Of a DNA stretch of 64,000 bases, positions 682-52,686 are shown piece by piece. Each line of letters starts with the position of its first letter. The stretch's first letter is position 1. Both the position numbers and the translations under genes were made by a program. Where the stretch lies: NCBI GenBank assembly GCA_965153355.1, contig OZ231126.1, positions 38,688,001-38,752,000 on the forward strand, given 5' to 3'. The notes below the pieces were generated by a model, which saw only the letters and a program-made list of their open reading frames with translations, did no database searches and had not been told where the DNA came from. This DNA is from Flaccisagitta enflata. Its lineage: Eukaryota.

Positions 682-3600
682 TCAGTTGCCAAAACTGAAG
701 TTGACATTTTGTTCCTTGTTAACTTCAATCACCAAGTTAAGTGATGGAATTTCTATGTCTCCTGAATCAGAACAAATAGAGTTAGAAGGAAGTTTCAAAC
801 TCTGACTTTCTTCAAGCACAATGATGGTATCACAAGATTTCTGTTTGGTTTCATGATCAACCTTAGGAAGTACTGTTTCTTCTTGGATTTGTTCATCATG
901 TGCTCCACTTCCAGGCGTCAAGTCAACCTCCTGATCATGACCCCCAACATCATCTGAGTCTATTTCTTCACCTTTTGAGGCGTTCAACTCCGTCATTTTA
1001 CTTTCTTCGGTAAATCTATTAGTAACACCAAGAACATCCTTCATCCAAGTTCTAAATGACTTGCTCTTAGAATTTTGCTCCCCATTTGTTTGAAAATTTG
1101 GGTTGAGGATCTGGGGTTCTGAGGCAGCAGTGGGAGAAATTTTATCAGGGTGATTTAAAAGATTATCAACCTTTGGACCTTCCTGAGAAACAATTTTAGT
1201 ATTTGACTCCTCTTTCTCCTCAAATTTTTCAAATGTTGAGTTGGTCTCCAAAATCATTTCATTTTCTCCTTCAGGGTGAAAGGAGGAACTGAAAGCCTTG
1301 TTGTTTACAATATGGGAAGCCTGTTTGGTCAAGGAAATTTTTGGTAGTTGACCATGCTTGTTATCATATCTAATGCTTGGACCATCTGCTTCACTTTCAT
1401 AAGTGTGGCTTTCTTCAATGAATTCCTTTTCAAGTTGCAATGGAGCTGTTGCACTTAGGTAATCAAAATCGCTTTTGCTGTCTGCAATCAAATTTTCTTC
1501 CTCCGTTTGTGGAACAGGGAGAGATACTTCCCCATTGACAGAATTTAAAATGTCTGCAGTCTTATTCTCATGACAAGGATTTTGATCATGGCTTTTATGT
1601 TCTTCACTAGAATTATCATCATTGAAACCAGCCATTGTCAATTCTGCTTCCTCTATATCAAGTTGTTCTTTACTTTGTAAACTGTTATTTACACCAAGAA
1701 ACTCCATCAGCTGCAGCTTAAATGGTTTGCTCTCATCATCTCTCTCCTCATCCATTTGCAAGTATGAATTTTGCTCCCCATTTGTTTGAAAATTTGGGTT
1801 GAGGGTCTGGGAATCTGATGCATCAGGGCAAGTCATTCTATCAGGATCATTCATAAGATTATCAGCCCTGGGACCTTCCTGAGCAACAAACTTAACAGTT
1901 AACTCCTCTTTCTCATCTAGTTTTTCATCATGTTTCTCATCTGCAACAAATGTTGAGTTACTCTTTAAATTCATTTCATATTCTCCTGCAGGGTGAAAAG
2001 AGGAACTGACAGGTTCATTGTTCACAATTTGGTAAGCCTGTTCAAGGGAAGAAATTTCTGGTGATTGATCCTGCCTGTTATCATATCCAGTGCTTGGATT
2101 GCATGCTTCACTTTCATAAGTGTGGCTTTCTTTGATGATTTCCTTTTCAAGTTGCAATGGAGCTGTTGCACTTAGATAATCAAAATCGCTTTTACTGTCT
2201 GCAGTCAAAATTTCTTCTCCCTTTTGTGGAATAGGGAGATATCCTTCCCCATCCATTGAGTTTGGAATATCTGACGTCTCATTTTCTAGATATGGATTTT
2301 GTTCATGGCCTTTTTGTTCTTCACTAGAATTATCATCATTCAAACCAGCCGTTTCTGCATCAGCTTCCTCTGTAGTAAGTTGCCCTTTAATGCTATTTAT
2401 GCCAAGAAATTCCATTAGCCGGAGCTTTAATGGTTTGCTCTCAGCATCTCTCCCATCATCCATTTGGAGGTATGACGATGGGACTTGTAATGTAGAGGCT
2501 TCAGGTGATTGGGTCTCAATTGTTGCACTCAGATAATCAAAATCGCTTTTACTGTCTGCAATCAAATTTTCCTCCTCCTTTTGTGGAATAGGGAGAAATC
2601 CTTCTCCGTCTACAGAGTTTGGAATGTCCAATGTCTCATTTTCAAGATATGGATTTTTTTCATGGTCTTTTTGTTCTTCACTGGAATAATCAAAATTTAA
2701 ACCAGCCATTTCTGAATCTGCTTCCTCTGTTGTAAGTTGCTCTTTACTTTGTAAACTGTTATTTATGCCAAGAAACTCCATTAGCCGGAGCTTTAATGGT
2801 TTGCTCTCAGCATCTCTCCCATCATCCATTAGAGGGTATGAGGATGGGAGTTGTAATGTAGAGACTTCAGGTGATTGGGTCTCAATTGTGTCAACTTTAT
2901 CTGCAGTGATTGAAACATCAGAATCATTTTCTTTGACCAAGTTACCATTTCTCTGATCTATCAATAATTCTTCTGCCGCTTTCTCATCAAGTTTCTCATC
3001 TGAAACAAATGTTAAACTTGTCCTTAAATTCATTTCATTTTCTCCTACAGGGTGAAGAGAGGAACTGACCTGCTCATTGTTCACAATTTGGTAAGCCTGT
3101 TTAGTGGAAGAAATTTCTGGTAGTTGATCCTTCCTGTTTTCATATCCGATGCCTGGACCACATGCTTCACTTTCATAAGTGTGGCTTTCTTCAATAATTT
3201 CCTTTTCAAGTTGCAATGGAACTGTTGCACTCAGATAATCAAAATCGCATTTACTTTCTACAGTCAAATTTTCCTCCTCCTTTTGTGGAATAGGGAGAAA
3301 TCCTTCTCCATCCACAGAGTTTGGAGTATCCAATGTCTCATTTTCAGGATATGGATTTTTTTCATTGCCTTTTTCTTCTTCACTGGAATGTCCAATATTC
3401 AAACCAGTCATTTCTGAATCTGCTTCCTCTGTTGTAAGTTGCTCCTTACTTTGTAAACTGTTATTTATGCCAAGAAACTCCATTAGCCGGAGCTTTAATG
3501 GTTTGCTCTCAGCATTTCTCCCATCAGCCATTTGAAGGTATGAGGATGGGAGTTGTAATGTAGAGGCTTCAGGTGATTGAGTCTCAATTGTGTCAACTTG

Positions 3601-6600
3601 ATTTGCAGTAATTGAAACATCAGAATCATTTTCTTTCTCTAAGGCATTAACCAAGTTACCACTTCTCTGATCTATCAATAATTCTTCTTCCGCTTTCTCA
3701 TCAAGTTTCTCATCTGTAACAAATGTTGAACTTGTCTTTAAATTCATTTCATTTTCTCCTGCAGGGTGAAATGAGGAACTGACCTGCTCATTGTTCACAA
3801 TTTGGTAAGCCTGTTTAGTGGAAGAAATTTCTGGTAGTTGATCCAGCCTGTTATCATATCCGATGCTTGGACTGCATGCTTCACTTTCATAAGTGTGGCT
3901 TTCTTCAATAATTTCCATTTCAAGTTGCAATGGAACTGTTGCACTCAGATAATCAAAATCGCTTTTACTGTCTGCAGTCAAATTTTCCTCCTCCTTTTGT
4001 GGAATAGGGAGAAATCCTTCTCCATCTACTGAGTTTGGAGCTTCCAATGTCTCATTTTCTAGATATGGATTTTTTTCATTGCCTTTTTGTTCTTCACTGG
4101 AATTTTCAATATTCAAACCAGTCATTTCTGAATCTGCTTCCTCTGTTGTAAGTTGCTCCTTACTTTGTAAATTGTTGTTTATGCCAAGAAACTCCATTAG
4201 CCGGAGCTTTAATGGTTTGCTCTCAACATCTCTCCCATCATCCATTAGAAGGTTTGAGGATGGGTCTTGTATTGTAGAGGCTTCAGGTGATTGGGTCTCA
4301 ATTGTGTCAACTTTATCCGCAGTGATTGAAACATCAGAATCATTTTCTTTCTCTGAGGCGTTGACCAAGTTACCATGTCTCTGATCTATAAATAATTCTT
4401 CTGCCGCTTTCTCATCAAGTTTCTCATCTGAATCGAATGTTGAACTTGTCCTTAAATTCATTTCATTTTCTCCTACAGGGTGAAGAGAGGAACTGACCTG
4501 CTCATTGTTCACAATTTGGTATGCCTGTTTAGTGGAAGAAATTTCTGGTAGCTGATCCTGCCTGTTTTCATATCCGATGCTTGGACCGCATGCTTCACTT
4601 TCATAAATGTTGCTTTCTTCAATGATTTCCTTTTCAAGTTGCAATGGAACTGTTGCACTCAGATAATCAAAATTGCTCTCACTGTCTGCAGTCAAATTTT
4701 CCTCCTCCTTTTGTGGAATAGGGAGAAATCCTTCTCCATCTACTGAGTTTGGAGTATCCAATGGCTCATTTTCAAGATATGGATTTTTTTCATTGCCTTT
4801 TTCTTCTTCACTGAAATTTCCAATATTCAAACCAGTCATTTCTGAATCTGCTTCCTCTGTTGTAAGTTGCTCCTTACTTTGTAAACTGTTATTTATGCCA
4901 AGAAACTCCATTAGCCGGAGCATTAATGGTTTGCTCTCAGCATTTCTCCCATTATCCATTTGAAGGTATGAGGATGGGAGTTGTAATGTTGAGGCTTCAG
5001 GTGATTGGGTCTCAATTGTGTCAACTTGATTTGCAGTGATTGAAACATCAGAATCATTTTCTTTCTCTAAGGCATTGACCAAGTTACCACTTCTCTGATC
5101 TATCAATAATTCTTCTGCCGCTTTCTCATCAAGTTTCTCATCAGTAACAAATGATGAACTTGTCTTTAAATTCATTTCATTTTCTCCTGCAGGGTGAAAT
5201 GAGGAACTGACCTGCTCATTGTTAACAATTTGGTAAGCCTGTTTAGTGGAAGAAATTTCTGGTAGTTGATCCAGCCTGTTATCATATCCAATGCCTGGAC
5301 TGCATGCTTCACTTTCATACATGTGGCTTTCTTCAATAATTTCCTTTTCAAGTTGCGATGGAACTGTTGCACTCAGATAATCAAAATTGCTTTTACTGTC
5401 TGCAATCAAATTTTCCTCCTTTTGTGGAATAGGGAGAAATCCTTCTCCATCTACAGAGTTTGAAATATCCAATGTCTCATTTTCAAGGTATGGATTTTTT
5501 TCATGGCGTTTTTGTTCTTCACTGGAATCATCACTATTTAAACCAGCAATTTCTGAAACTGCTTCCTCTGTTGTGACTTGCTCTTTACTTTGTAAACTGT
5601 TACCTATGCCCAGAAACTCCATTAGCCGGAGCTTAAATGGTTTGCTCTCAGCATCTTTCCCATCATCAATTTGGAGGTATGAGGATGAGACTTGTAATGT
5701 AGAGGCGTCTGGTGATTGGGCCTCAATTGTGTCAACTTTACCTGCAGTGATTGAAACATCAGAATCATTTTCTTTCTCTAAGGCTTTGACAAAGCTACCA
5801 CTTCTCTGATCTATCAATAAGTCTTCTGCTGCTTTCTCATCTGCAACAAATGTTAACTTTGTCTTTAAATTCATTTCATTTTCTCCTGCAGGATGAAAAG
5901 AGGAACTGACAGGCTCATTGATCACAATTTGGTAAGCCTGTTTAGTGGAGGAAATTTCTGGTAGTTGATCCTGCCTGTTATCATATCCAATTCTTGAATC
6001 GTATGCTTCACTTTCATAAGTGTGGCTTTCTTCAATGATTTCCTTTTCAAGTTGCAATGGAATTGTTGCACTCAGATAATCAAAATCGCTTTTACAGTTT
6101 GTTATCATATTTTCCTCCTCCTTTTGAGGAACAGGGAGAAATCCTTCCCCATCTACAGAGTTTGGAACATCCGATTTCTCATTTTCAAGATATGGATTTT
6201 GTTTGTTTGATTCTTTTAGAATAGCTTGGAATCCTGAAGATAAAGAATTGTCTTCTGAACTAACTGAAAGGGAAAATTTCGGATCAGTGGCAAGACTGGA
6301 GCTAACAATTTCATTTACTGGATTAAGACGGCTGTTTTCCTTGACAATATTGATTGCATCATCAATATTTTCATCTAATTTTGAACTACAATTATCTGTA
6401 GTAGCTTCCTCACTCTCTGCCTTTGATAGCCCAAGAAGGGTCACATTTTCAGGAGGGTCATTGGTCATCATTACATTTGCTTGAGCCTTTTCACATGACT
6501 CTACCTTCATAATAAGAGATGGTTTACTACCTTGCAGATAATCTTCTAATGTATTTGGTGCACCTAAGCCTAGAAACTCCTTTACTTTTGTACTGAAAGA

Positions 6601-9230
6601 TTTGGATAAATCAGCACTTTCATTTTCATCATTTTGCTCAATATCTTTTACTTTGAAAACTGAATGATTTTTAGTTGTTATAGGTGGGGACTGATTGATG
6701 TCTTGTAATTCTGAGGGTTTCAATTTCTTTTCATTTGAACAGTCACTGATAAATGTACCAGGCAATGCAACAGACTCAATATCCTTTGAACCTGTAGTCC
6801 CTTCATCCATGTTTTCAACCAATTTATCTGAAGCTTTCCTGTCTGGTTTAGCATCAGGCTTCTCATTATTTTTACCTGAGTGCCTTTCTTGTTCCTCTAA
6901 CCAATGTACAATGTTGAACCTATCTCTTGGTTTTCTCACTCTTGATGGCATCAAATTTCTTTCTGTATCAAATACGACCACATTTCCAAGTTCTTTTGTA
7001 CCACTGCTTGATTCAGTGTATGGCATGTCACTTGACACAATATCTGAAACTGATGTTTCTTTCAACAATTGTAATTTGGCATCTTGTGAGTGATCCTGAA
7101 TGGTACCGTTTACATATAAATCATAAGTTTTTTGTTCCACATCAATCAAAACAGATACACTGTCATATTCTTTATCTGATTTGGATCTATCATCGTTGAC
7201 AACTGGCTCAGCAACTGTTGAATTATTGTCTTCCAATGTTGGATTGTTAGCTTTACTGTTTAGAGCCTCCGGTTCAATCACTATGGTGGGGCTAAATATT
7301 TGGTGCTCATCATTCACATCAAAGTGAATTGTAGCTTTGTCTTGAAGATGAGTTTCATGTTGAAAGTTTTGGGCAGGGAACATCACATTTTCAGTGATGA
7401 TGTCTTGGTTCTCCTTTGAACCTTTCTCTGATTGCTTCAAAAATTCCTGCATCTTTGAAGAATGATCATCAATGTATGCTACAGGTTCATCATCAGTTTC
7501 CTTGTCTAAGATTTTTTCATCTCTGTGATTATTTACACTTGAATTTTTCCCTTTTTTCACAGGAATTGGGATATTGGAAGCAATTGCAAATTCATGATAA
7601 TAAACGTCTTCCATAACAGAGTCCTCAGTTTCTGTTTCTAGATCAACTTGAGTGCTAACAACAGCAGACTGTTCCATGCTTTTGCATTCATCAATTGTCA
7701 TATGAGGTTCTGAATTTTCTTGGATGGTTTCAAGAGACATAGTCTTCAAATGATCGGACTCATCATTAGTGAGACTCTCGTCAATTAAATTAGAATTTTT
7801 GACTGTGTTCTTGCCATGGAGTTCTACCATTGGCGTTATCCCTGTAGATCTGTTTTCTTTTAAGTTGAGTTTCTCTACATCAATTTGCGACTTAATTCTT
7901 AAACCTCCTCCAGATTTTAGAGGGATCATGGTTTCCAAATGACTTACTTCTTGATCATAATCAGGTTCTTCAACTGCACTCTCTTCAGTTTCTTGATCTA
8001 GCTCTACACTGTCTAAAGTACATGCGTTTTGTAGAGTTTGAAAATCTACATCACAAACACTCATCAAGATGCTGGCTTTGTCATCGTCATTTTTACAAAA
8101 ATCTTTTTCCGGCAGATCATTACAATCAAGATAAACCGAAGGAACTCTCGATGAATTGCCAATATTAGCTTCAAATGATGCATCATGAGTGTTACTTCTA
8201 TCAATTTTGTGACTCGACTTAAGATCCATGACAATGGATTTATCATCAATAAAATCTGTAAGAAGACACTCCTCAGATGGTGGTGTCTCACAATCAAAAT
8301 AGACGGAGGTCCTCCTTGAAAGTGAACTGTCAGGTCCTTTATCCAAGCTATAGCTATCTAACAGGGGGAAAGAGTTGGTTTGACTGATGGGGGAAATATT
8401 GCTGCTGTCAGAAATATGGTATTTTGGTTGATATTGGGTGGAATATGACAATTTCTCAGGGTTTTGGTTTGTACATGGTACAGTTGCACCACCTTCAGCG
8501 TTAGATATTAAAGGCAACTTTTTAAGGCTCGTATGAGTATGATTGTTTCTCCCATTGTCATCTTCTGCTTTTTGATCTGACGTAAAAGTGTGCAGATCAT
8601 ATGATGATGGTGGCACTGATGTTGCGGAGATATATTTTTTGGAATGTGTCTCTGGGTCAAATGAAGAAGCAGTTTCATATTCAAAAACAGTATGGTGAAC
8701 AGGTGCATGGATTGTAATATGAATAGGTGTGTAAATAGTTTGGTTCACAACTTCAACCTCTTTCAATTGACCATCTTCGATGGCTAAGGGATTTTCACAC
8801 TTGTTGTGTATGTCCTCTGGGGATATAGCTTGGAAACGTACTGTGTTAACATCTGTTCCAGGTTGAAGAATGTCATTTTCTGTGGTATCTTTAAATTTTT
8901 CATTTGAGCTATTTGGCAAAATAGTTTTTATTTGGCCAGCCAACGAATATGGAGAAACTGCTTTTGATATACATGGAAATGCTTCTACTTCATTTGAATC
9001 TGTTTCTGCAACAACCGTGGCATCATCTTGTGTCATGTGGCTCACCATTTTGAAATCGTTGATAGCAACATGAAAATTTTGCGAAGAATCTGCATGACTC
9101 GCGTTGATAGAATTTTGCTCATCAAAAGCGTTGCTTCCCTGACGTTTGGTTTCTTTAAAAATGGTGTTCCAGTCTCCTTGGTCATTGGATTCATAGACAA
9201 CCCAAATTTCTTCTTCGTCACTTTCGGGAT
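682..9230 (-). CDS. Giant exon (~8.55 kb) of a ~2,900-aa acidic, probably disordered protein with eight ~235-aa tandem repeats; function unknown
   Basis: Stop-free frame of 2858 codons in the track (682..9258). Phase-1 acceptor (cattaaAG|atccc) at 9231-9232. Repeat indels preserve the frame. ATTAAA ~60 nt past the stop. Confidence 0.85.
1000..6200 (-). repeat. Coding tandem repeat, ~700-714 bp unit, 8 copies (one internally deleted)
   Basis: NPYLENE...DGEGFLP...DFDYLSAT...KPLKLRLMEFLGI recurs. The NPY anchors lie near 6190, 5490, 4778, 4062, 3350, 2648, 2290 and 1575. Confidence 0.95.
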
Positions 9231-10355
9231 CTTTAATGAAGTGGGTAATTGAAAACATAAAGGATTATATTTGGTTCAGTGCTTCCAAAGTGGAGAATCA
9301 ATCAACAAGGCCGGATCAGTAATACCAGTAAAGGCGGCTCATGACCGAAAAAGTTTTAAATAAAGTCTCTTTTTCGCACGAAAATTTTTTCAGTATATTA
9401 CGCTTTGTTGTTGGCTTGATTGTTTGTCTGTGACTAAAGATTAATTTTGGTTCTTTTTGTTTTTGTTCTTTCTTGTCTGTGTGTGTTTGTGTGTTGTGAC
9501 TGTGTTTGTCCGGTGTTTAATTTCCTTTCTTCTTCCTCTCTATTCTTTTGTCTGTGTGTGTGTGTCCCTCCTCCTGTGTCTGTGTCCTGTGTGTGTCCCT
9601 GTGTGTGTTGCTCCTGTGTGTCCCTCTCTCCTCCCTTGTCCCCTATCTGTGTCCCTGTGTGTCCCTCCCTCTCCTTCCTCTCTCCCTCTCTCCCTCTCCC
9701 TCCCTCTCTCCCTCTTTTCTTCTTGTTGGTCGTCTTCTACTTTTCTTCCTTTCTTCTTTGCATTCTAATTTTCTCCTATGTTGGGGAAATTCTGCGTAAC
9801 ATTTTACTTTTTCCTTCTGTAGGGATCAAAATTGATCCATGAATATCACTTTGCAAAATGCGAAAAAATATAAGATTCAAAATTCATAACTCCTAAACTA
9901 TTGATCGTAGAGATTTCTGCTGGCGCCATTTGAAAGAGAAAATTAAGTTTTTCTAATAACACGTGCTATCATCTCAGCCCCAAAACTGCACAACTTAAGT
10001 AAATTGCTCAACCAAAAATGGAAAACTTTGCTTCTCTCGATGCTTCAAAAGTCGAATTACGTACTTCGACTTTTTTTTCAATTACTTTGCATTTGTTGTA
10101 CTTAGTTTTAATCAATATATTTTGGTAACACGACAAATGACATATGGTGAAGATTAATGAACTACAGCGGTGGATTTAATTTTTTAGATGCTGCTACCTA
10201 CGCATCTCTATAAGAGAGGCTTTGGCCTGGTCCGCTATTGCTGCTGGTTGGTTGGTTGTTGGTTTGCTGGTCCGTCAATGTCGAGGTTGAAAATGCACGC
10301 AACACTCCAGAGTCGATTTCACTGCTTTAGGATCTGGTATAGGCGGTTGGCAATG

Positions 10356-10451
<96 letters not shown>

Positions 10452-10696
10452 TTGTCTGTTTAGTTTTAGTAAGAATGTCATTGATGAGCTGCTGCATGGA
10501 TTTACCGTTGTACCCCTGCATTGTTTTTCTTGCACTTGTGTGTGTGTGTAGCCTGTAATGAAAACTTGTGTGTGTCTGCTTTTGTTTCATATTTTTAGTC
10601 ATTTTATCCACCCTGCCCATTTATTAAGTTATTGTTGTTGGTTTGTTGGTTGGTCTCTTTTGAGTGAGTAGGCTGAAGGGGCCATGACTCCATGCT

Positions 10697-12590
10697 TTTG
10701 GGCAGCAGCCCCAAAGGGGACAATGTCCTGAGAACACAGGGGACTTCACTGCTTATCTGTCCTCTCTTCGGCTTCTGCTCTAAATGTTGTTTCAGCCTGA
10801 AATTCGACCTTCCAGGCTTGAATTGACCCTTTTCAGGCCTGGAATTCTGCTTTCTTGCAGGCCTTGAATTCATGTATGTCTGGAAATTTACCTTTCTAGG
10901 CTTGAAATTCCACTCCAGGCCCAGTACCCATTCCTCTCAGGCCTGAAATGTACCCTCCTGTGCCCAAATTCAGCCTCTCAGGGCTCTGAAATCTGACCTT
11001 CCTTTTCAGGTAAGGTGAAATCTGACTCTGTATGTGAAATCTGCCCTTCTGAGGTCTTTTGGAATCTTTCCTTCAGGTCTGAAATCTATCCCTCTCAGGC
11101 CTGAAATCTGGCCTCTCAGGCCTGAAATCTGCCCTCTCAGGCCTGAAATCTGCCCTCTCAGGCCTGGAAATCTGCCCTCCTTAGGCTCTGGAAATCTGCC
11201 TCGCAGGCTTGAGAAATCTGCTCCTCTCTCAGAGCTTCTGAATCTAAACAGGGCAGATTTCAGGCCTGAGAGGGCATTTCAGTACTGTGGGAGGGGCCTT
11301 TGGGGGAGAGTGACAAACAGACACAACAACGAAACCCCTGTTCACAGGTCGTCCTTCTAGTCACGGCCTGCTTCTTCACTACACCACAATCATGCAAAGT
11401 AGGCAATGGTATCGCTGACTACATATTGCTCATGACGGCTTTGGGCAGCGGCCCCGGGAGGACGGTTCCAGAACATAGTGGGATTCTTTTGCCCGCCCGC
11501 TGTCCGCGTCTGCTTCGTTAGCGTCTCCTTCATCAGACTCCTCAGGCTCTCCAATCACAGCCTTTGTGGCCTTTAAACCAGCCTTCTCAGGCTTTGAAAT
11601 CCAGCTTCAGGCCAAATCTGGCCTCCAGGCCAAATCTGGCCTCTGCTTCAAATTCGGCTTCAGGCTCAAATCTGGCCTTCAGGCTCAACAGCCTTTGAGG
11701 CTTCAACGGCTTTCAGGCTCTCAAAACCAGTTCAGGCCTCAAACCTGGCCTCATGCCTCAAATTAGGCCTCTTGTAATTTCAAATCAGCCATCTAAACTC
11801 TCACTCTAGTTGCTCTGTAGGCTGAATCAGTCTCTGGCCTTGCCTTTAACTAGTCTTCAAGCCTCAAGTCGCCTTTCAAGCTTCTAATTTGGCATTCCTA
11901 GGCCCGGCATCAGCTCTCTTCATAGACTCCAGTTTAGGGTTTGAATGCCTTTCAGTCAGCCCTATAGCATCTCATCCCATTCTTCATGTAGGACGAACAA
12001 AAGTCCCCCTGTGTTCTACAGGACTTCGTCCCCTTCGGGGCCGCTGCCCTGCTTCCCCTCACTCCAATTCACAATCACTCAAAGCAGGGCAACGGGTATC
12101 GCTGACCACATATTGCCCTTGGGCGACCTGTCCTTCTTCTTCTTCTCCTTCTACTTTGTATCCCCATATCTCAGCCTTGAGGCCCAAATATCAGCCTTGA
12201 GGCCCAAATCCCAGTCTTCAGGCTCAAATCCCTGCATGAAGGCCCAAATCCCAGTCTTCAGTCTCAAATCCTTGCCTCAAGGCCCAAATCCCAGCCTTGA
12301 GGGGGGGGGCATAGGAGAAGAAGAAGAAGGAGAAGGAGAAATTTCTGAATATGTCAAAGCATAGGTCATTGTCCTATTTGGGGCCACTACTCTGCTCCCT
12401 CCCTCAACTACGATCATAACCTCTCAGGGCACCGGTACCGCTGACCATCTAACGCTTTTGCCAGTATTTACTTTATCGGCGTTTATGAGCTTTTTAAGCT
12501 TACCGATCCTGCCCAAATGCTCGTGTGACTTTCTCCATCACTGCCCCTGCCCACCCGCACGAAACTGGGGTAGCCGTGTATCTGGCCTTG
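10697..12590. mobile_element. Cluster of minisatellite-bearing DINE-1/HINE-like elements
   Basis: Repeated gggcagc.gcccc / ggggccgctgccc blocks, caggcctgaaatc and ggcccaaatcccagccttga repeats, and a ggccttgtt end. Confidence 0.6.
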
Positions 12591-12678
12591 TTTACACGAG
12601 AAAATATTTATTAAGATTGTTTATCGTCTCTCCCTTGCTAATAAATCAATGGCTAAATCTGAATGTAACCAGTAATAC

Positions 12679-12835
12679 CTGTGTGCATGTTTTTGTCTTG
12701 TTCCACGGCTGTCAAGGTGATGTCACCGACGCTGACGGGCAGCAAAGCCGCTGAAAGAAGACGATCTCGCACTTCGTCCCCAGAAAATTCTCTCCGAAAC
12801 ACCGAACCGTCTTCGTCTGTGGCCGTTACACTCAT
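12679..12835 (-). CDS. Probable first coding exon of the giant-protein gene (MSVTATDEDGSVFRREF...QDKNMHT)
   Basis: CpG-rich exon-like stretch. Acceptor tttctttcAG at 12848-12849, ATG at 12835, donor cacag|GTattac. The 157-nt length gives phase 1, matching the acceptor at 9230 (joined: NMHT-D-PESDEEE; 2901 aa in total). Confidence 0.6.
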
Positions 12836-13126
12836 TTTCAAGGGTGGCTGAAAGAAACGAGAGAAACTAGCCATTCAGTGATAGCGCATGTTGTGAACGG
12901 AATCCGCGCCCCGCCCAAGTCGAGTGTTAATCTATCAATGTAATGTACGGCTGGAAGTGTGGTTGCGGAAATTGAACCATTCGCTTTATAGGACATCAGT
13001 CCCTTGGAGGGCGCTGCCCAAAAAAGGAGACCAAGTCGTGCCGAGGTTCCCATTTTTTTTTAACAATGAAGGCGGCTTTCGCTGTAGGAAAAAAGTCGTA
13101 AATGCCAAAAGAGAAAGAGAAACAGT

Positions 13127-16179: not shown

Positions 16180-17232
16180 TACCCAAGTCACGTGCGGGTG
16201 GGCAGGGGCAGTGAGAAAAAGCGTTTGGGCAGGAGCAGTGATGCAAGAGTCATACAAGAGGCCAAATAGTCGCAAAAGCGTTAGATGGTCAGCGGTACCC
16301 GTGCCCTGCTTAAGTAGGTTATGGTTGAAGCTGAGGGAGCAGGGCAGCGGCCCCAAAGGGGTCAATGACCTATGCTTTAACACACATGGGGGATTTTTTT
16401 TGCTCCTCCTTCTTCTCCTCCGTCCCCCCCCTGACTCAGATCCTAGCCTCAAGGCCCATATCCCAGCCTTGAGGCCGAAATCCCAGCCTTGAGGACCAAA
16501 TCCCAGACTAGGGGATTCAAGGATGGGATTTGGGCCTCAATGTTGAGATTTGGGCCTCAAGGCTGGGATTTAGGCCTCAAGGCTGGGATTTAGGCCTCAA
16601 GGCTGAGATTTGGGCCTCAAGGCTGGGATTTGGGCCTTGAGGCTAGGATCTGAGTAAGAGGGGGAGACATAAAAGGAGGAGCAGGAGGAGGAAAAATCCC
16701 CCATGTGTGTGAAAGCATAGGTCAAGGACCCCTTCAAGGCCGCTGCCCGAAAAGCAAAATGTTACCAACCATCCGACAAAAATTAAGTCACCCAAGGATT
16801 GCACATGGTCAGCTGTATCCAATGCCCTGCTTAGAGTAATTAGCTAAAGATACAGGAGTGAAAATCCATACGTCCTGAGAGGGTATATTTGAGGCCTTAA
16901 CAGCAATTTTCCATGATATTCAATGAGAATTTTGCATTTTTTGGTATTTCTTGTCAATTTGCCATGTTATTCAATGGGAATTTTACATTTTTCTTAGTTT
17001 TCATCAACTTTCCATGTTATTTTAAAGGAAACATGCATTTTTTTGCTTATTTGTAAATTTTCCATGTTATTTAATGGGAAGTTTGCATTTTGACAATTTC
17101 CCAAGTTATCCAATAGGAATTTGGAGGATTGGGGGGGGGGACGTACGGACATACGGATGGACGGACGGACGTATAGAAATTCACCCCTGTGTCCTACAGG
17201 ACATCGGCCCTTTGGGGCCGCTGCCCAAAAAG
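16180..17232. mobile_element. Adjacent DINE-1/HINE-like elements (palindromic 20-bp arrays; ~50-bp tandem repeat)
   Basis: Same terminal blocks as 57460-58023. The 20-bp arrays face each other. Confidence 0.6.
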
Positions 17233-17693: not shown

Positions 17694-18207
17694 AGATTGA
17701 TAGATAGACTGAGAGACAGACAAACAGAGAGGCAGCTCTATTTTGTAGCTAGAATCAGGAACTAACACCTCTCACAAAATTAGGCGAACTGGGTTGAGAA
17801 CTTGTCCATAATTGCGTTTTTTGGGCAGCGGCCCCGAAGGGGACGAAGTCATGTAGAACACAGGGGGATGTTTGTTCGTTCGTTCGTCCGTCCGTCCCGC
17901 CCCTCGAGGCCTCTCAGGCCTCAAATCTGGCCTCTCAGGCCTCAAATCTGGCCTCTTAGGCCTCAAAATAGACCTCTCGGGCCTTAAATCTAGTCTCTCA
18001 CGCCTCAAATCTAGCCTCTTAGGCCTCAAATTTGGCCTCTCAGGCCTCTTATCTGGCCTCTCAGGCATCAAATCTGGCCTCTCAGGCATCAAATCTGGCC
18101 TCTCAGGCCTCAAATCTGGCCTCTCAGGCCTCAAATCTTGCCTCTTAGGCCTCAAATCCAACCTCTTGCCTCAAATTAGGCCTCTCACAGTGGGCCTTAA
18201 CTGGGTA

Positions 18208-19488: not shown

Positions 19489-22036
19489 ACTGGGTATGAG
19501 TTAAAAAAAATCCCCAATGGTAGTGACTGGCATTAGTAGGTACAATTTATAGTGCAGAATTGATAAAAACCCTTAAAAAAAATTTCCTTTGAAAATTTTT
19601 GCAAAAATCGTTAGAAAGCATCAAATTGTCATATATATTCGCATATAGATCTCAAGGATACATCAGTTTTAAAAATTCCAACTCAAGATTCACATTTCTG
19701 ATGAAATTTTCAATCATTTGATAGGTCACACTATATACTTTCATGAAAAAATAAGATTTTCATTCTTTATGCCGCCGTTACAAAGAAAGCAACGGTGGCT
19801 TAAAATATGAAAATCTTATTTTTTCATGAAAGTATAAAGTGTGACCTATCAAATGATTGGAAATTTCACCAGGAATGTGAATCTTGAGTCAGAATTTTGA
19901 AACTAATATATCCTTGAGATCTATTTGTAAATATATGCAAAAAATTGATACTTTTAGCGATTTTTGCAAAAATTTTCAAGGGAAATTTTTTTTAAAGGGT
20001 TTACATCAATTCTCCACTATAAATTGTACCTACTCATACAAGTCACTATCATTGGGGATTTTTTTAAACTCATACCTAGTTAAGGCCCACTGTGCTCTCA
20101 AGCCTCAAATCAGCTATCTGATCCTCAAGTCAGTTCTCTATGGCATTCCAAGCCTTGATCCAGCCCATTCAAGCCCCCAACTGGCTTTCTGGCCTTACAT
20201 CACCCCTCTTAGACCTGAATTCAGCCCAAACGGACGGACGGACGGATGGACGAACGAACAGACGAATAAAAGTCCCCCTGTGTTCTACAGGACTTCATCC
20301 CCTTTGGGGCCGCTGCCCTGCTTCCCCTCACTCAAATTCACAATCATGCACAGCAGGGCAACGGGTATCGCTGACCACATATTGCCCTTGGGCGACCTGT
20401 TAAAGTCATAAACAGGAGTCCAGGTTAATGATATTTTCAGAACATGTAATTCTCATGAGGGCTCTACAAAAAAAACTTCAAATCATGTCATCCAACAGCT
20501 GTAATTAGCGTCATCAAACAATATCATGCAAATTCTAGGTATAGTTTAGCATCAAATTTGTGGCCAAAACCATCGATTTTGACAAGGGGTTTAGATATTT
20601 TTTGCAGCTGCCACTGACTGTATCTTGGTACTGTTGACTCATTTTTGTCTGTGAGTGATACAAGAACCCATAAACTGATGTTTTCTTGCCTTATTTATGG
20701 TAAATTTTAAAAAAGTTTATGCTGTCTCATCATCAAAAGTTTCCTCGTCAAAATCAGTCAAAATCTTTCACTGGATTTTTGGCATAACCCTTTCCCAGAG
20801 CCACGCACTTTCCCGGGTACATAATTTTGCCCCAATTTGCGAAAATACTATATTTTAGCTCCCTCTGTGTCAAATTTTAGCCCACTGAATGCATTATTTC
20901 TGTCAATTTTGATCGTTTTGCCAGTTCGTTTAATTATGTGAGAGGTGTTATGATGCGATGACCAAATGGCGGTTTACACGCAACATTTGGAGGAAAAAAT
21001 TCATGCTCGCTTTGTCCCTCAGTAACACGTTTGGCAGACCTAGTTCTTGAGCGTGTCTTATCTAAAAAGAAAATTTGATAAATTGCAGTTTCAGGTACTA
21101 TGTACCTGCTTTTTTCACGGAAGGATGCGGGGGTTTGAGTTTCCGGGTGAAATTTCTTGTTCGCCATGAGTTCTTTTAATTCTTTTTTCAATAAAACAAT
21201 CATCGGTCCATTATGTTTGTCTCTTTCCATTCAATTTCTGTTTCTAATTTTTTTTTCTTTTTTTTTTGTTTGTCTTTATTTAATTCATTTTTCAATTTCT
21301 ATTGCTTGTTTGGCGAGATTTTAAAATCTTGCTGGGTATTTTTCCTCAAAGAAAAAATCTTTCGAAAGTCGAAACGATATCTATTCATCATGGCTTTACA
21401 CTTTTCTTTTGGGTTGTTCATCACATAAGACTCGTTTTGAGTGTATTCATTATCCTCCAAGAGCTTCTGCAGATCTGAATCAGTAACCACAACCCAATCA
21501 TCCTCTTGGATGCCCGAGTACTCCTTTCTGTCCAGAAGGTTGATAATCATTTCATTTGATGGTGGAACATTTCTGCCATCATTCTCAACGACAAATAAAC
21601 TCATTTCAACTTCCGTTGCTTGTAAGGTCGATACTGACATCGACACTTCGAAGTCCGTTAGAGTGTCTTCCGCAGCTTCTTCGCAAGAGTCCAACTTTTC
21701 CTCAGTACCCACTTCCTCTAGGTTCTGAGAATTATCTGATGACTCAAACTGTATCCTTAAAAGCTCCATAGGCATAGGCTCAATATTTGATATTTCACTT
21801 GAAACAAAGCTCTCCTCTTGAGAAAAATGCAGAGCCGAATTTTCTTTTCTGTGGCTACAATTTTCGAGGGAAAACTCAATATCAATCTGTGGAGACTGAT
21901 TGCATGCCTTTGGTTGATCAAATGGAGTTGCTTTGTGCAAATCATGCATCGATTCGTTGCTGAACCTTGTTGACGGCTTCAAGTCAATAATTGGTGTCTG
22001 ACAATTCATCTTTATCATATCACGAGGCTTTTCATA

Positions 22037-24308
22037 ACTATGGCAAAAAAAAAAGCGAACAACTTGTTTGTCAATGTTTCACATACAAGCAATGAGAAAA
22101 ACATAGCAAAATCCATGACCATTTTAAAGATCTGCGAAAGATCTTTCAAGTGAGACCTTGCTGAATGTTCTAGCTCTATCCGTTTAGAAATGGCATTAGA
22201 ATGAAGACAGGTGGTCAAGAATTTGGAAATTCACTACGCCACTTTCATGGGTTATCTTTATTCTAACATAACAAGGCCAACACCTATAAGTCGCGTGCAG
22301 GACAAAAATAACTGAACTGACCTGACTCCTTATTGTATCTTTTTATCGGAAGTCAGACTAAAACCAGACCCAAACCAGACTGAAACCAGACTCAAACCAG
22401 ACTCAAACCAGACTCAAACCAGAATTAAACCAGACCGAAACCAGACCTAAATCAGACATAAACCAGACTTAAACCAGACATAAGCCAGATATAAGCCAGA
22501 CTCAAACCAGACTCAAACCAGACTCAAACCAGACTCAAACCAGACTCAAACCAGACTCAAACCAGACTCAAACCAGACTTAAACCAGACTTAAACCAGAC
22601 TTAAACCAGACTTAAACCAGGCTCAAACCAGGCTCAAACCAGGCTCAAACCAGGCTCAAACCAGAATCAAACTAGACTCAAACCAGACTCAAACCAGAAT
22701 TAAACCAAACCAAAACCAGGCCCAAACCAGACCGAAACCAGACCTAAATCAGACCTAAATCAAACATAAACCAGACAAAAACCAGACATACACCAGACCT
22801 AAACCAGACCTAACCCAGACCTAAACCAGACATAGATCAGACATGAACCAGTCTTAAACCAGAGGTAAACCAGACGTAAACCAGACTTAAACCAGACTTA
22901 AACCAGACATGAACCAGACTTAAACCAGAGGTAAACCAGACGTTAACCAGACTTAAACTAGACTTAAACCAGACTTTAACCAGACTTTAACCAGACTTTA
23001 ACCAGACTTTAACCAGACTTAAACCATACTTAAACCATACTTAAACCAGACTTAAACCATAGTTATCTTTAATATCATTTTAACCAGCGGACTTAAACCA
23101 GCAGACTTAAACCATTAGACCAGCAGACTTAAACCATTAGATTTAAACCAGCAGACTTAAACCAGCAGACTTAAACCAGCAGATTTAAACCAGCAGACTT
23201 TAACCAGCAGACGTAACCCATTAGATTTAAACCAGCAGACTTAAACCAGCAGATTTAAACCAGCAGATTTAAACCATCAGACTTTACCCAGCAGACTTTA
23301 ACCAGCAGACTTTAACCAGCAGACTTTAGCCAGCAGATTTTAACCAAAAATGACCAAAAATGGCCAAAAATGACCAAAAACGACCAAAAATGATCAAAAT
23401 GACCTAAAATGACCTAAAATGACCAAAAATGACCAAAAATGACCAAAAATGACCAAAATGATCAAAAATGACTAAAATGACCAAAAATGACCAAAAATGA
23501 CCAAAAATGACCAAAAATGACCAAAAATGACCAAAAATGACCAAAAATGACCAAAAATGACCAAAAATGACCAAAAATGACCAAAAATGACCAAAAATGA
23601 CCAAAATGACCAAAATGACCAAAATGACCAAATATGACCAAATATGACCACAAATGCCCAAAAATGACCAAAAATGACCAAAAATGACCAAAAATGATAA
23701 AAAATGACCAAAATGACCAAAAATGACCAAAATGACCAAAATGACCAAAATGACCAAAAATGACCAAAAATGACTAAAAGCAACCAATAATTCCCAAAAC
23801 CAACAAAAAAATGACTCAAAATAACTCCAGACGACCCAAAAAGACGAAAAAAAGCAAAGTGTTACGGACCGACAGACGGACGGACGGACGGACGGACCGA
23901 CCGACCGACAGACAGAGCGGGTTGTAGAGTCGCGTGCACGCGACTAAAAACTAAACGCATTGAGTTAAAAAATCATTTTTGGCGCCATTTTAAAGAAAAT
24001 TTGAAGCTCTTTAATTTGCTCATGGATAACGAGTAGCTAAGACAATCCTGAGCTGCATTATTGACAAAAACGGAAAGACTAAAATCGCTCATTGGAAAAA
24101 AAGTTGGAATAAGCACTTTTTTCAATCGGCGATTTTTTTCTTCAAACCATTGCCATTTCTAAACGAATAAAGCTACAATGACCAGCAACGTCGCATTTGG
24201 AAGATTTTTTGCAGAGCTTTAAAACGGTCATGGATTTTCTATGGTTCAGGCCCATAGTTGAGCAGAAACTAGCAAAACAAAGTGTTCGCTTTTTTTCTTT
24301 GCCATAGT
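22037..24308. mobile_element. TA-flanked TIR element interrupting the pseudogene ORF
   Basis: ta|ACTATGGCAAAAAAAAAAGCGAACA ... TGTTCGCTTTTTTTCTTTGCCATAGT|ta, with ~200-bp imperfect inverted arms. Confidence 0.8.
22270..23950. mobile_element. DINE-1/HINE-like element filled with satellite arrays (11-, 14- and 10/9-bp units)
   Basis: Starts aacaaggcc and ends (GACG)n...gtagagtcgcgtgcacgcgactaaaaa. Arrays are CTYAAACCAGA (~22358-23060), TTAAACCAGCAGAC (~23082-23345) and CCAAAAATGA (~23345-23780). Confidence 0.75.
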
Positions 24309-24822
24309 TAGATGTTGAAGTTTTCATCTAGGGAGGAAAGATCGAATTTTGGCTGTCCATCGCTTTTGTGCTTTTGGCTCTCTTTCATTGCGGGTCTCAG
24401 CATGGACGGGGTGCTGGTAAGGTCCTTTTCCTCGATTCGCCCAAAACTTTCCATGATCATACCTCCATCAATTTCATCTGCCGGTTTCCTTGAAATATTC
24501 TGTGTTTCATTTAACCGTCGAGAATATGACCATTTTATTGGACCATATTTGACTCCACTACCATTTTTATCAGTTGACAAGTTCTCAAGATTGGATGGCA
24601 CTTCCTGGAGTTCCAAGTCTTCAAACTCGTACATGACTTCATGCTCTTGGTGAATTGGCTCGTCGGATTGGTCAAAATCAAATTCAACATTTTCATCAGG
24701 CTCCATCAAACCATCGCCATTATCCGCGGCGAAACCTAAATCCTCCTCAGCAAAATCTATATTCTCCTCAACTTGTTTCTTCTGAACTTTCTTCCTTGAA
24801 CTTGTGTCTGCTTGAATTTTCT

Positions 24823-24952
24823 TTTTAGGTGCGACAAAGCACCTCTATAACTGGCTGTGTCCGTTGGTTGGTTGGTCGGTTGGTCTGTCTGTGGGGTAAC
24901 GCATTCGTTCGACGATCCACACGTCGCACCTTATTGGCCTACTTGGCCTTGT
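24823..24952. mobile_element. 130-bp DINE-1/HINE-like element inserted into the ORF
   Basis: ttttaggtgcgacaaagc...ggcctacttggccttgt. A near-identical copy lies at 51065-51703. Inserted in a T run with no TSD. Confidence 0.8.
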
Positions 24953-25328
24953 TAATGTAAAATAGGAACCCAATTGATGATGATTTGGTGGTGCCTTCAA
25001 TGGCTTCGTCGTTGTCTTTCCCTGACATTTGCTTTTGCCTGACAACCAATTCCATCATTTTTTCTTTGAATGATTTAGGGGTAGGATCTGATTTCCTTTG
25101 AGAATACTGCGCCATGCACGCATCAGATAATTCATCTCTCTTTTCTGAGTTTGTATTTGAACTTGAAGAGTGGGTAAGCATCATGTTAAGTTCCTCTCTC
25201 TTTTTGTCATCGTTCTCATCATGCAGGGTGGGTAGTGCTGCGTCTTGGTGAGAGGATTTTGTTCTCTTTGTTGAAATAAGCATAGTCATAATCTGTTTTT
25301 TCACTGTGGGCCGACCCTTCTCAGTACC

Positions 25329-28300: not shown

Positions 28301-28397
28301 TATTTTTTGCCATGGATTATGCATGGACTGAACCACTAGAAACCGCAGAAAAAGTGACAGTTCTCCTAGTTTAAACCAAGCGGTTCCAAAAATCTGA
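25329..28397. repeat. Long inverted repeat: arms ~25329-26100 and ~27620-28397
   Basis: The outer ~600 bp are nearly identical in inverse orientation, and the same spurious ORF (MTASNLVVFQRIHKK) appears on both strands. Confidence 0.9.
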
Positions 28398-29018
28398 TGT
28401 GCAGAGGGCACTTCTATGCCAGAAATGGAAAAACAAAAAACGCCAAACCTAATCTTTGAACTATATGATTGATATTAACCAGCCATAGAACCCTAACTTT
28501 ACCGGAAGTAGGTGCCCACTACGTAATCACCCGGACTCGGGCTCTGGAGGCTGAAATGGCAAATTTTGTCAAAATTTAAAAGTGAAAGAAATAAAGCAAA
28601 TATGGCTGAAAATTACAGTTAATGGTTAGTATGTAAAATACCAATCACAATTTTGGCTGATTTTTTCATGGGGGGGGGGGGGGCTAGAGCGCTCTAAAAT
28701 CGCCTGGCGAGGCTTATTTTTTATTAAAAAGGGGGGGTCAGCAACCTTTTTTTTTTTTTTTAAACCATAGTACACCCAAATTTTAAGATAATATTATAAA
28801 TGAAATTTGAAGAGGAGACCCTTAGGTTTTATAATCAGGTTTCCATATATGGGTACCTCTCTTAGTTTTTGCGCAATACTAAAAAATGCAATTTTTAAAA
28901 TTCAACGAGTAACTTCCCATTGTAATCCTATGGAAGGGGGAAGAGCAAAAAAAACAGTTTTATTTTTTTTTATCTATGTACACCAGGGACTTAAGGTACT
29001 TTTTTTGGTGAATTTCTA

Positions 29019-29592
29019 CAGTAGATGTCGTCTAGACTTGGAAATACGGGGGAATTTATTACAGGATGACAAATTTACTTAAGAGACTGATATTTGAAAT
29101 ATAGACTAATAAAAGGATGCTTTGTTGCCCATGGGTGTTGGTTGCTATGGAAACACATTTTCATGTTTTCACGCTAAAGTATCAATATTTTGAAAAATTT
29201 TTTTAAGGAACATTGTTTAAAATGAAATTTGCCACAACTTTCCCACAGTATGTTCTGTAAGAATATTGCTCTTTTAGCCGTTGCTAGGGAGCGTAACTAT
29301 GTGTGACAGCCCTGTGATGCTCCCTAGCAACCGCTAAACCAGCGATATTCTTACAGAACATACTGTGGGAAAGTTATAGCAAATTTTATTTTAAACAATG
29401 TTCCCTCAAAAAATTTCTCAAAAAATTGATACTTTAGCGTAAATACATGGAAATGTGTTTCCATAGCAACCAACACCCATGGGCAATAAAGCATCCTTTT
29501 ATTAGTTTATATTCCTTATATCACTCTCTTAACTTGATTTGTCTTCCTGTAATGAATTCCCCCGTATTTCCAAGTCTAGACGACATCTACTG
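29019..29592. mobile_element. Tc1/mariner-type palindromic MITE
   Basis: ta|CAGTAGATGTCGTCTAGACTTGG...CCAAGTCTAGACGACATCTACTG|ta. The arms extend to the centre near 29305. Confidence 0.85.
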
Positions 29593-30211: not shown

Positions 30212-30308
<97 letters not shown>

Positions 30309-30501
30309 AAGAAAGAGAGAAAGAGAAAGAGAGAAACAGAAAGAGAGAAACAGAAAGAGAGAAACAGAAAGAGAGAAACAGAAAGAGAGAAAGAGAGGAA
30401 AGAGAAAGAGAGAAAATGAAAGCAAGAAAATGAAAGAGAGAAAAAGAGAGATAAAGAGAAAAAGAGAGAAAAAGCGAAAAAGAGAGAAACAGAAAGAAAC
30501 A

Positions 30502-30609
<108 letters not shown>

Positions 30610-32049
30610 GAGGAAGAGAGAAAGATAGAGAGAGAAAGAGGGAGAGAGAGAGAGGCCTTGAGGCCCATAATATTTTAAGATCTTGCTTGCTAAAACCTTT
30701 TTCACATTAACAACATTAAAATTTACTGTAAACAACAAAAATCCCATGATTGTTAGCAAAAAAAAACAAAAATAGCCTAAAAAAACCACTTTTATGGTCT
30801 CTAGGGGCCCCTAGGGCCCATAACACCCCAAAATTTTCCTTGGTAAGACCTCTATTACATTAACAAAGATAAAATTTACACTACACATCAGAATAAAACA
30901 TGATTTTATGGTAAAAAACTTAATATAGCCTCAAAAAACTACTTTGCGGCCTTTAAGGGCCTTTAGGGGCCCCTAGGGCCCTTACCACTGGAAATTTTAT
31001 CTTGCTAGGGCATCTATTACATTAATAGGGTTGAAATTTACCATAAATAACCAAAATAGAAAATGATAACAGTGGAAAAAACCCTTAAATTCCTTAAAAA
31101 CATGATTTCGGGCCCTATTGGGCCCTTTGGGGCCCCTGGGACCCATAAAGCTGGATATTTTTGCTTGCTAGGGCATCTATTACCCATACAGGGTTCAACT
31201 GTGCAAAAAAAATTAGGTTAGAAGCTTCTGGAGGTTTTGAGAAAGGTTCGCCTGAAAAAGCCCACTGTGTTTTTCCCAAGTTTGAATTCATGAGACAGGG
31301 ACCATCCAGGTTCTGAATGATTAACGCTCTGATTCATCTCAACGCCATTTCCTCTGAAAGTCTCGGGTAATTTTATTTGCCGGTCAGCAAATTCCAGCAA
31401 TCTTTCTTTCAACGGTTTTTGGCTGCTTTCAATTGTTTCCATCTTTTTTGACCCGAAACTTGAGAACTGAAGTTTAGGGAGTTTGAATGAATCGGACTTC
31501 CAAACGCTTGTGCCCTGCATAACATCAGTTGGTTGAGTTTTTGCTAAATCCTTTTCGGCATCCATATTTTTCAGTCGTTTCCCAAGTTTCACCCACTTCT
31601 CTGTCCAGGAGTGATTCGCGCCATCGTTATCATCAACTGTCATTGTTTGGTCGTTGTGAAGTTGTACTCTTTCATCACATTCTTTCTCACTTTCTTGAAC
31701 CTCCAACCATTGAACGATGTCAAATACATCTTTTGCTGCCCTACCCCTTGGTAAAATCATTTTCCTATCGTTAAGGAAAGTTTTATTCACGTCAGATTGG
31801 TTGGTTCCAACAACTGATTCATCTTTGATAGGCGCAGATGCTGCAGTGACCTCATCCTCATTCTCGCATTTATTGCAGATGAAATGAGATGCATCCTCGG
31901 GAAGTTGTTGTGGGGCAGAATAGCTCCCCTGTCCTTTTTTTTCCATGACCACCTTGTTCTTGATTAGTTTCAGATTTATTATCACACAAGCTGGGATAAG
32001 ATGGGTAAAAAGTAAGGTGAAAATTTTGACCGTCGTATTAGATGAGAAT

Positions 32050-32247
32050 AAACAAGGCCGGATACACGGCTACCCCAGTCGCGTGCGGGTGGGCAGGGGC
32101 TGTAATTGAGGTCACTTCATCATTTGGGCAGGTGCAGTGAGGCCAAAGACCGCAAAAAAAAAAAAGTAAAGTGTAACGGACGGACGGATGGACCAACGGA
32201 CGGAGCGACAAAGCGGGGTGTAGAGTCGCGTAGCACGCGACTAAAAA
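32050..32247. mobile_element. Short DINE-1/HINE-like element; related copies at 1-89, 13960-14045, 33315-33565, 34938-35120, 37088-37335, 42540-42715, 43597-43743, 49813-49945, 51885-52160, 55669-55828
   Basis: aacaaggccggatacacggc...gggtgggcaggggc...(GACG)n...agagtcgcgtagcacgcgactaaaa with a terminal stem-loop, A/T-run flanks and no TSD. Confidence 0.7.

Positions 32248-34021: not shown

Positions 34022-39512
<5,491 letters not shown>

Positions 39513-39950: not shown

Positions 39951-52686
<12,736 letters not shown>

Follow-up and report, generated by a model that had tools for sequence, protein, structure and literature searches.

What does a giant acidic protein do with nine copies of one short, basic-hydrophobic segment? 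The question is raised by a window of 64,000 nucleotides of the Flaccisagitta enflata genome (assembly GCA_965153355.1, contig OZ231126.1, positions 38,688,001 to 38,752,000; positions below count from the first letter of this window), whose minus strand holds a single giant open reading frame (ORF) of 2858 codons (682-9258). An earlier reading of the letters alone, hereafter the original prediction, had described a very acidic chain studded with regularly spaced amphipathic helices and proposed a membrane tether or ruler. We find that the giant frame belongs to a genuine protein-coding gene of a marine animal and that this gene is spliced; its product is predicted to be an intracellular polyanion that is almost entirely disordered. 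Our preferred and still tentative reading, to which we give somewhat less than even credence, is that the recurring segment is a helix by which a disordered, polyanionic scaffold docks proteins at many sites. The composition bears out the acidity of the chain, with 12.2% E, 11.5% S, 7.9% D and a net charge of -344.

The recurring segment is a basic-hydrophobic 13-mer of the form K-[PS]-[FL]-x3-[LVM]-x-[ED]-[FV]-L-G-[ILV]. Its nine copies start at residues 886, 1206, 1443, 1681, 1919, 2153, 2275, 2511 and 2733 of the giant frame, with successive spacings of 320, 237, 238, 238, 234, 122, 236 and 222 residues. The exact string KPLKLRLMEFLGI is present four times, together with the variants KPFKLRLMEFLGI, KPLMLRLMEFLGI and KPFKLQLMEFLGV and the diverged edge copies KSFSTKVKEFLGL and KSFRTWMKDVLGV. 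The original prediction had reported a 12-14-mer occurring about once per repeat and had quoted several of its variants; we recovered these strings exactly as quoted, along with the diverged copies that it had placed at the array edges and in a “paralog”, the latter being two same-strand copies in neighbouring open frames (KPLKERLLEFADR and KSFKEKMMELVVR; Table 1). Each motif copy carries a net charge of +1 to +2, and its flanks carry -1 to -8 per 30 residues.

Comparison of the copies revealed which positions are kept. The residues K1, E9, F10, L11 and G12 are invariant across the eight aligned units, and the codon comparison showed that K1, E9, L11 and G12 are retained despite synonymous codon changes, which points to selection on the motif. 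Over all 11 copies, the two from the neighbouring exons included, conservation is seen at K1, [PS]2, Phi3, Phi7, [ED]9, Phi10 and Phi11, among which positions 3, 7, 10 and 11 fall within a helix arc of 100 degrees. Moreover, of the whole unit only the motif can still be made out at the two array edges, where the sequence around it can no longer be aligned. A class-based pattern, K-[PS]-Phi-x3-Phi-x-[ED]-Phi-Phi/A, which was written after the instances had been seen, gave nine matches in the giant frame and three in the other 245 ORFs of at least 70 residues (246 frames totalling 30,610 residues). Two of these three outside matches lie in the neighbouring exons and one in the microsatellite-bearing frame 10330-10620, compared to a mean of 0.16 outside matches in shuffled sequences, where one in 1000 shuffles reached three (P ~0.001). 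Judged by this pattern, diverged motif copies appear to be present beyond shuffle expectation.

Structure prediction places a short helix at the motif and little structure elsewhere. The first AlphaFold2 model, covering a 303-residue stretch with two motif copies and using a seven-row alignment of the array's own units, left 259 of the 303 residues at a predicted local distance difference test (pLDDT) score below 50, with a predicted template modelling (pTM) score of 0.14. It has three helices, namely residues 3-10 of each motif copy and the acidic segment LQLEKEIIEES. Averaged over blocks of ten residues, the pLDDT is 69 and 73 at the two motif helices, about 50 at LQLEKEIIEES, and 33-51 over the other blocks. 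The second model (residues 692-900, three-row alignment) is helical in just two places, the IVHWLEEQE box (pLDDT 78) and the diverged motif copy 1 (~70). The Ser-Lys-Pro at the N-terminal end of the motif and the Gly that follows it are typical helix caps. In a charge-hydropathy plot, 85 of the 94 sixty-residue windows lie on the disordered side. The models and the plot agree with, but do not prove, the picture of helices on a disordered string drawn by the original prediction.

The regular spacing of the motif arises because the coding sequence contains a tandem array of 714-bp units, each encoding about 237 residues and present in seven to eight copies of 71-96% DNA identity. The inner units are 92-96% identical at the DNA level and the outer units 60-83%; compared with unit 3, the translated units show 57-90% identity. 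Unit u6 is shortened to 122 residues by an internal deletion that removed 115 residues, and a C-terminal tail of 126 residues follows motif copy 9. The synonymous divergence is 0.06-0.13 within units 2-5 and rises to 0.3-0.5 toward units 1, 7 and 8, so that the central units must be either recent or homogenised. The ratio of non-synonymous to synonymous differences per site (pN/pS) between units ranges from 0.39 to 0.91 and is near 1 for some pairs. As the recurrence of the motif is due to duplication, it is no independent evidence that the motif matters.

The giant frame continues across a splice junction. One metatranscriptome contig (run X8) jumps from 9232 to 12681, and its next 30 letters match positions 12681-12710 exactly. 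The letters at the two sides of the junction, CACAG/GTATTA at 12679/12678 and TTAAAG/ATCCC at 9231/9230, join the giant exon in phase to an upstream exon, exon 1, which has a GT donor at 12678-12677 and a candidate ATG at either 12874 or 12835. Because this contig splices the giant frame in phase to an upstream exon, we take the gene to be real. The ATG at 9258 is intronic and not the start, because the splice acceptor falls at 9231/9230; the end coordinate 9230 given by the original prediction equals this acceptor, which was derived here. The spliced frame comprises 2914 open codons and encodes a product of ~325 kDa with an isoelectric point of 4.3, and the intron contains minisatellites and a (GA)45 microsatellite. 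In addition, contigs from two runs labelled as metatranscriptomes cover the giant exon at 7175-7983, 8717-9040 and 9078-9232.

Contigs from other individuals differ from the window at 11 synonymous and 24 non-synonymous positions (736 and 2873 sites, respectively), giving a pN/pS of 0.56, which points to weak purifying selection on the giant frame. They also contain one in-frame deletion of 6 nucleotides, and none of the 35 differences creates a stop codon. The read depth at 5962-6117 is ~6.8 times that of the unique part in the collapsed contigs of another individual, a crude value that does not give a copy number. DNA of the same organism is present in several marine-metagenome runs. The window as a whole is eukaryotic in character, with a G+C content of 33-50% in 2-kb windows and dense micro- and minisatellites.

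Exon 1 has features of its own. At about position 12850 on the minus strand, just upstream of the second ATG, a polypyrimidine tract and a CAG form a strong acceptor-like site in phase 0 with the frame. The exon 1 peptide also carries the most hydrophobic 19-mer of the protein, with a mean Kyte-Doolittle hydropathy of 1.74 and one Asp inside; it could form part of a small N-terminal fold, as a strand or a helix, or else anchor the protein weakly in a membrane. A secreted biomineralisation matrix protein was considered and rejected, as exon 1 has no signal-peptide-like start and the maximum 19-residue hydropathy over the first 30 windows is 0.32.

The features described so far suggest a way in which the protein could work. 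We propose that a unit of 237 residues was expanded into the array by unequal crossing-over, and that each unit would contribute one short capped α-helix, with Ser-Lys-Pro at its N-terminal end, Phi3, Phi7, Phi10 and Phi11 on one face, and a Gly stop. The helices would act as docking “stickers” that bind a folded protein partner via their conserved hydrophobic face, with acidic spacers that would hold the chain in an extended, soluble state. The scaffold would then offer nine sites, or 11 should the neighbouring exons be part of it, and this valency may well matter to its function.

The original prediction instead took the helices for amphipathic membrane-targeting sequences, and the protein for a multivalent membrane tether or ruler that works by avidity. 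Its short helix is indeed predicted, and it is basic-hydrophobic with a small positive charge in each copy. Over 11-residue windows the edge copies have hydrophobic moments of 0.58 and 0.69, in the 99th percentile or higher among all windows of the protein. The seven core copies score a moderate 0.34-0.44 (82nd-95th percentile), or 0.16-0.31 when 18 residues are taken, and they place the hydrophobic L5 and M8 on an otherwise polar face. The amphipathic character holds for the edges of the array much better than for its core, and the low hydrophobic moment that the original prediction named as refuting it is in part observed. On an interfacial scale, and before any gain from helix formation, the nine copies have partition sums close to zero (+0.1 to +2.1 kcal/mol), and many weak sites could add up; the K-segments of dehydrins (PMC10358736) provide a precedent for repeated lipid-induced helices in disordered proteins. 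However, the acidic flanks and the strongly negative chain would be repelled by anionic membranes, and the neighbouring-exon copies carry too much charge for partitioning (+5.9 and +6.7 kcal/mol). Since these two copies keep the hydrophobic face despite such sums and acidic flanks, it would be the binding face that is conserved and not an affinity for lipid, and we consider membrane targeting distinctly unlikely. Another possibility is that the helices bind each other or the acidic helix LQLEKEIIEES, in the same or another chain, giving a stickers-and-spacers protein that compacts or forms condensates. The two helices predicted in each unit are indeed opposite in charge, one being the basic motif and the other the acidic island; the latter is the best-conserved segment of the unit (0.92-0.95 identity), and the core motif is hydrophobic on most faces. 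The first AlphaFold2 model nevertheless left the two helices unpacked, with the low pTM and the acidic-helix pLDDT of ~50 given above, and we regard such self-association as quite improbable.

The protein might also be a bulk polyanion, serving for example as an entropic spacer, as a buffer for cations or as a client of condensates; the motif would then have no role of its own and would recur by duplication of the unit. The 714-bp array explains the recurrence, the constraint between units and between individuals is weak, and other islands are more conserved than the motif. Set against them, the motif alone of the whole unit survives recognisably at both edges and in the neighbouring exons, and synonymous changes have accumulated at its conserved residues. 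It also accounts for nine of the 13 matches in the protein to the hydrophobic pattern of class 1c nuclear export signals (as that class is generally defined), and it is therefore the main hydrophobic cluster of each unit. On balance we find the bulk-polyanion explanation unlikely. The same nine matches, one for every copy, are what could be said for the motif as a leucine-rich nuclear export signal, Phi-x3-Phi-x3-Phi-x-Phi, and for the protein as a multivalent ligand of the exportin CRM1. The pattern is loose, and the shuffled protein gives ~8 matches per class, so the fit is weak evidence; moreover, the two neighbouring-exon copies do not conform, having A or V and then R at the last positions. 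Export signalling therefore seems very improbable from the sequence. Finally, the frame could be a decaying or non-functional repeat expansion that is transcribed and yields no useful protein, as might be suspected from the lack of a homologue in any collection searched and from the pN/pS near 1 of some unit pairs. Such a frame would hardly remain free of stops for 8.5 kb in DNA of 38% G+C and be spliced in phase, with an observed indel that keeps the frame and no stop among 35 differences between individuals, and we give this explanation next to no credence.

Several observations weigh against a docking scaffold. The constraint on the repeats appears weak, as judged from the pN/pS between units. 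When the diverged full units 1, 7 and 8 were compared with the consensus of units 2-5 (units 6 and 9 being left out), the motif window reached an identity of 0.72 and ranked 83rd of 226 windows, below three acidic islands, KEIIEESHTYESE (0.95), FDYLSATVPLQLE (0.92) and SSFHPAGENEMNL (0.92). The “spacers” are therefore not featureless. The comparison of motif and spacer conservation put forward by the original prediction, here run within the array, is thus divided in its outcome: the three islands outrank the motif, whereas its diverged copies persist at the edges and in the neighbouring exons. An orthologue from another species was not found in the protein collections or the Joint Genome Institute (JGI) metagenome contigs searched. 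The low pLDDT is weak evidence of disorder because the alignments are shallow, with seven and three rows drawn from the locus and its family only. As to expression, it is a guess that the runs behind the spliced contig are RNA, and a retrocopy in DNA could yield an identical joint; a polyA RNA run of the same organism (X13) gave no reads in the ~6% of the run that was sampled, which is no test either way. Lastly, the protein that we favour over a membrane as the ligand of the helix is a putative partner.

If the motif copies are docking sites, the protein would be a natural high-valency scaffold with a fast-evolving repeat number, and would provide a case for how arrays of short motifs arise and are tuned; with it would come a short helical motif and a lineage-restricted gene family, both of them new. 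The animal is plentiful in the sea, and its DNA is often met in ocean metagenomes. Animal genomes commonly encode lineage-specific acidic repeat proteins, and if the motif has no specific role, the giant protein would be one more ordinary member of that kind.

Homology searches agree with the statement of the original prediction that no known domain could be recognised. No Pfam match was found for the whole protein (E-value up to 1), the N-terminal 875 residues or exon 1, and six 50-residue motif segments and the neighbouring frames matched only Pfam entries far below the curated cut-offs. A profile search of PDB with the repeat alignment gave no match at an E-value up to 1, and a word-indexed search with the whole protein gave none among 7996 scored candidates. 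In an exhaustive HMMER search of the C-terminal 872 residues against 1.84 billion representatives, only two fragments were found, at 97-98% identity and each a singleton cluster. The N-terminal 900 residues, searched against the shorter proteins, matched one fragment at 99% identity and one at 83-84%, and a profile of eight repeat units matched solely P0003, a fragment already found. With the repeat profile and the profile of the conserved box, the JGI metagenome contigs gave 131 and 89 pattern matches, respectively, none of which was confirmed. The ESM Atlas gave no usable match for two repeats; for the N-terminal 890 residues it gave a “cardiomyopathy-associated protein 5” cluster with a score of 0.80, which was not used, as one third of shuffles reach that score. 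Literature searches for disordered acidic tandem-repeat proteins with amphipathic helices found no like protein among the matches listed, and those for the string “MEFLG” found no protein motif among the matches listed, which concerned entomology and insect collections; neither can show absence from print. As protein collections seem to cover the relatives of this organism poorly, the term “orphan” is provisional. The helix motif and the second conserved box together are a reasonable candidate for a new motif family.

Table 1. Positions of the giant gene, its repeats and motif copies, and related features in the 64,000-nucleotide window
Feature	Position	Strand	Basis or content
Upstream coding exon (exon 1)	12679..12874	-	Contig splice jump and sequence; encodes 52-65 residues
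Intron, GT...AG, ~3.4 kb	9231..12678	-	Splice junction
Giant exon	685..9230	-	Stop codon 682-684; phase 1 join to exon 1
Non-repetitive acidic N-terminal region, ~875 residues	6604..9230	-	
Conserved box RVRKPRDRFNIVHWLEEQERH, predicted helical	6877..6939	-	BLASTP, identity with P0006, AlphaFold2 helix
Tandem array of 714-bp units, ~237 residues each	1063..6360	-	
Motif copy 1, KSFSTKVKEFLGL, diverged edge copy	6565..6603	-	
Motif copy 2, KPFKLRLMEFLGI	5605..5643	-	
Motif copy 3, KPLMLRLMEFLGI	4894..4932	-	
Motif copy 4, KPLKLRLMEFLGI	4180..4218	-	
Motif copy 5, KPLKLRLMEFLGI	3466..3504	-	
Motif copy 6, KPLKLRLMEFLGI, in truncated unit	2764..2802	-	
Motif copy 7, KPLKLRLMEFLGI	2398..2436	-	
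Motif copy 8, KPFKLQLMEFLGV	1690..1728	-	
Motif copy 9, KSFRTWMKDVLGV, diverged edge copy	1024..1062	-	
Neighbouring open frame	31221..32069	-	Box at 31692-31820; motif copy KPLKERLLEFADR at 31380-31418
Neighbouring open frame	24942..25328	-	Motif copy KSFKEKMMELVVR at 25038-25076
Minisatellite family	11073-11228, 11608-11771, 12163-12302, 16440-16649, 17908-18187, 37451-37577, 57611-57938, 62293-62678	both	

The first of the two neighbouring frames (31221-32069) shares with the giant protein a stretch of 43 residues at 40% identity (BLASTP E-value 2e-5 for the pair), centred on RDRFNIVHWLEEQE versus KDVFDIVQWLEVQE. In a comparison of the giant frame with the rest of the window, this stretch is the only similarity (E-value 0.019), the next match having an E-value of 5.0. 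In both proteins a motif copy lies about 100 residues after the box, and the two are collinear. By its sequence the frame belongs either to a paralogue or to the giant gene itself, farther upstream; further upstream exons of the giant gene may exist, possibly including frames at 21302-32069 with the two extra motif copies. The same box is found in P0006, a fragment of 184 residues that is 83% identical to residues 692-816, with the 22-residue box unchanged, and that then continues directly with a stretch resembling residues 71-96. It follows that the modules stand in a different order in the two proteins, which hints at shuffled modules or at a second locus, be it in the same organism or in a related one. 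Another acidic frame on the minus strand (21302-22078, 259 residues) contains EDDWVVVTDSD, which appears to resemble DEEEIWVVYES at the start of the giant exon and, judged by eye, an LC3-interaction-type motif.

These similarities invite a wider proposal, which we hold with considerable doubt. The K-P-Phi-x2-[KR]-Phi-x-E-Phi-Phi helix and the RDRFNIVHWLEEQE box might define an undescribed gene family of modular disordered scaffolds within a single animal lineage, in which the docking helix was amplified to 9-11 copies and would gather about ten copies of one conserved partner, or bridge membranes, with a valency tuned by changes of repeat number between individuals.

Other parts of the window are of separate interest. 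A minus-strand ORF of 468 residues (43958-45364) matches Pfam MutS domain III with an E-value of 1.4e-15 and has no PDB sequence match at an E-value up to 0.001; as far as the domain match goes, a divergent MutS homologue probably has one of its large exons here. Minisatellites of 20-21 bp, with units such as GGCCTCTCAGGCCTCAAATCT and CCCAAATCCCAGCCTTGAGG, are dispersed on both strands and also occur inside the intron of the giant gene, and the family may be part of a mobile element. Long simple repeats at 46025-46917, 22354-23779, 50512-50937 and 30215-30654, being (AAAG)n of ~225 units, arrays of 10-14-mers over 1.4 kb, (TGT)n of ~140 units and (GA)n of 440 bp, produce spurious long ORFs in several reading frames. 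A short interstitial tract of degenerate CCCTAA (TTAGGG-type) repeats lies at 55546-55644, with 12 units and 78% matches. An Rfam gathering scan and a tRNA scan of the window found nothing.

How, then, does the giant protein compare with known systems? The membrane-targeting sequence of the MinD type is a short helix that is weak alone. The motif shares with it a helix of about ten residues that mixes Lys or Arg with Leu or Phe and would need avidity, but differs in being internal and repeated rather than C-terminal, in its acidic flanks and moderate core moment, and in the absence of an ATPase domain. The dehydrins, which are class II late embryogenesis abundant proteins of plants, are described in PMC10358736 as hydrophilic and disordered, with up to 11 lysine-containing K-segments that adopt an amphipathic helix only upon binding of a ligand or membrane. 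A repeated short helical segment in a disordered chain is the likeness to that description; however, the core (D/E)KIK(D/E)K, found in at least one K-segment of every dehydrin (PMC10358736), has no match here, and Pfam reports no dehydrin match. The giant protein is in addition of animal origin, about ten times longer and strongly acidic, with units of 237 residues and a core helix that is much more hydrophobic.

KNL1/Spc105 proteins have PP1-binding SILK and RVxF motifs at the N-terminus and a coiled-coil/RWD domain at the C-terminus. Their MELT-type arrays, as reported in PMC4558858, are docking motifs within fast-expanding, homogenising repeats whose copy number and sequence vary by lineage. 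A large disordered scaffold with a short docking motif in quickly evolving repeats is what the two have in common. In contrast, the pattern M-[ED]-[ILVMF]-[ST] has no match in the giant protein, whose motif reads MEFL and whose fourth position is not phosphorylatable because it is Leu. SILK and RVxF have no match either, and a C-terminal domain of the kinetochore type is absent within the window, exons beyond its start being possible.

WH2 motifs, which bind actin and occur in tandem in Spire, Cobl and N-WASP, lie in a disordered chain and begin with an amphipathic helix, after which comes an LKKV-type motif (PMC8102491). The motif resembles these in being a short tandem helix with a hydrophobic residue about six positions past its end (L17, F17 or M17, by eye), but the pattern L[KR][KRH][VT] has no match in the 2858 residues, and the tails read LQSK, LEDY and FTEE. 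Searches for PF02205 gave no match with the whole protein (E-value up to 1) or with six 50-residue segments (E-value up to 10), where the HMMER filters may drop very weak matches. The spacing of ~237 residues is far above that in WH2 arrays, whose linkers are short. Readings of the giant frame by the KNL1, WH2, dehydrin, PP1-binding and LC3-interacting region (LIR) motifs were each set aside, with no regular-expression match. Altogether, the giant protein fits no family tested, but on its sequence features it appears to work like a familiar kind of molecule, the disordered multivalent repeat scaffold.

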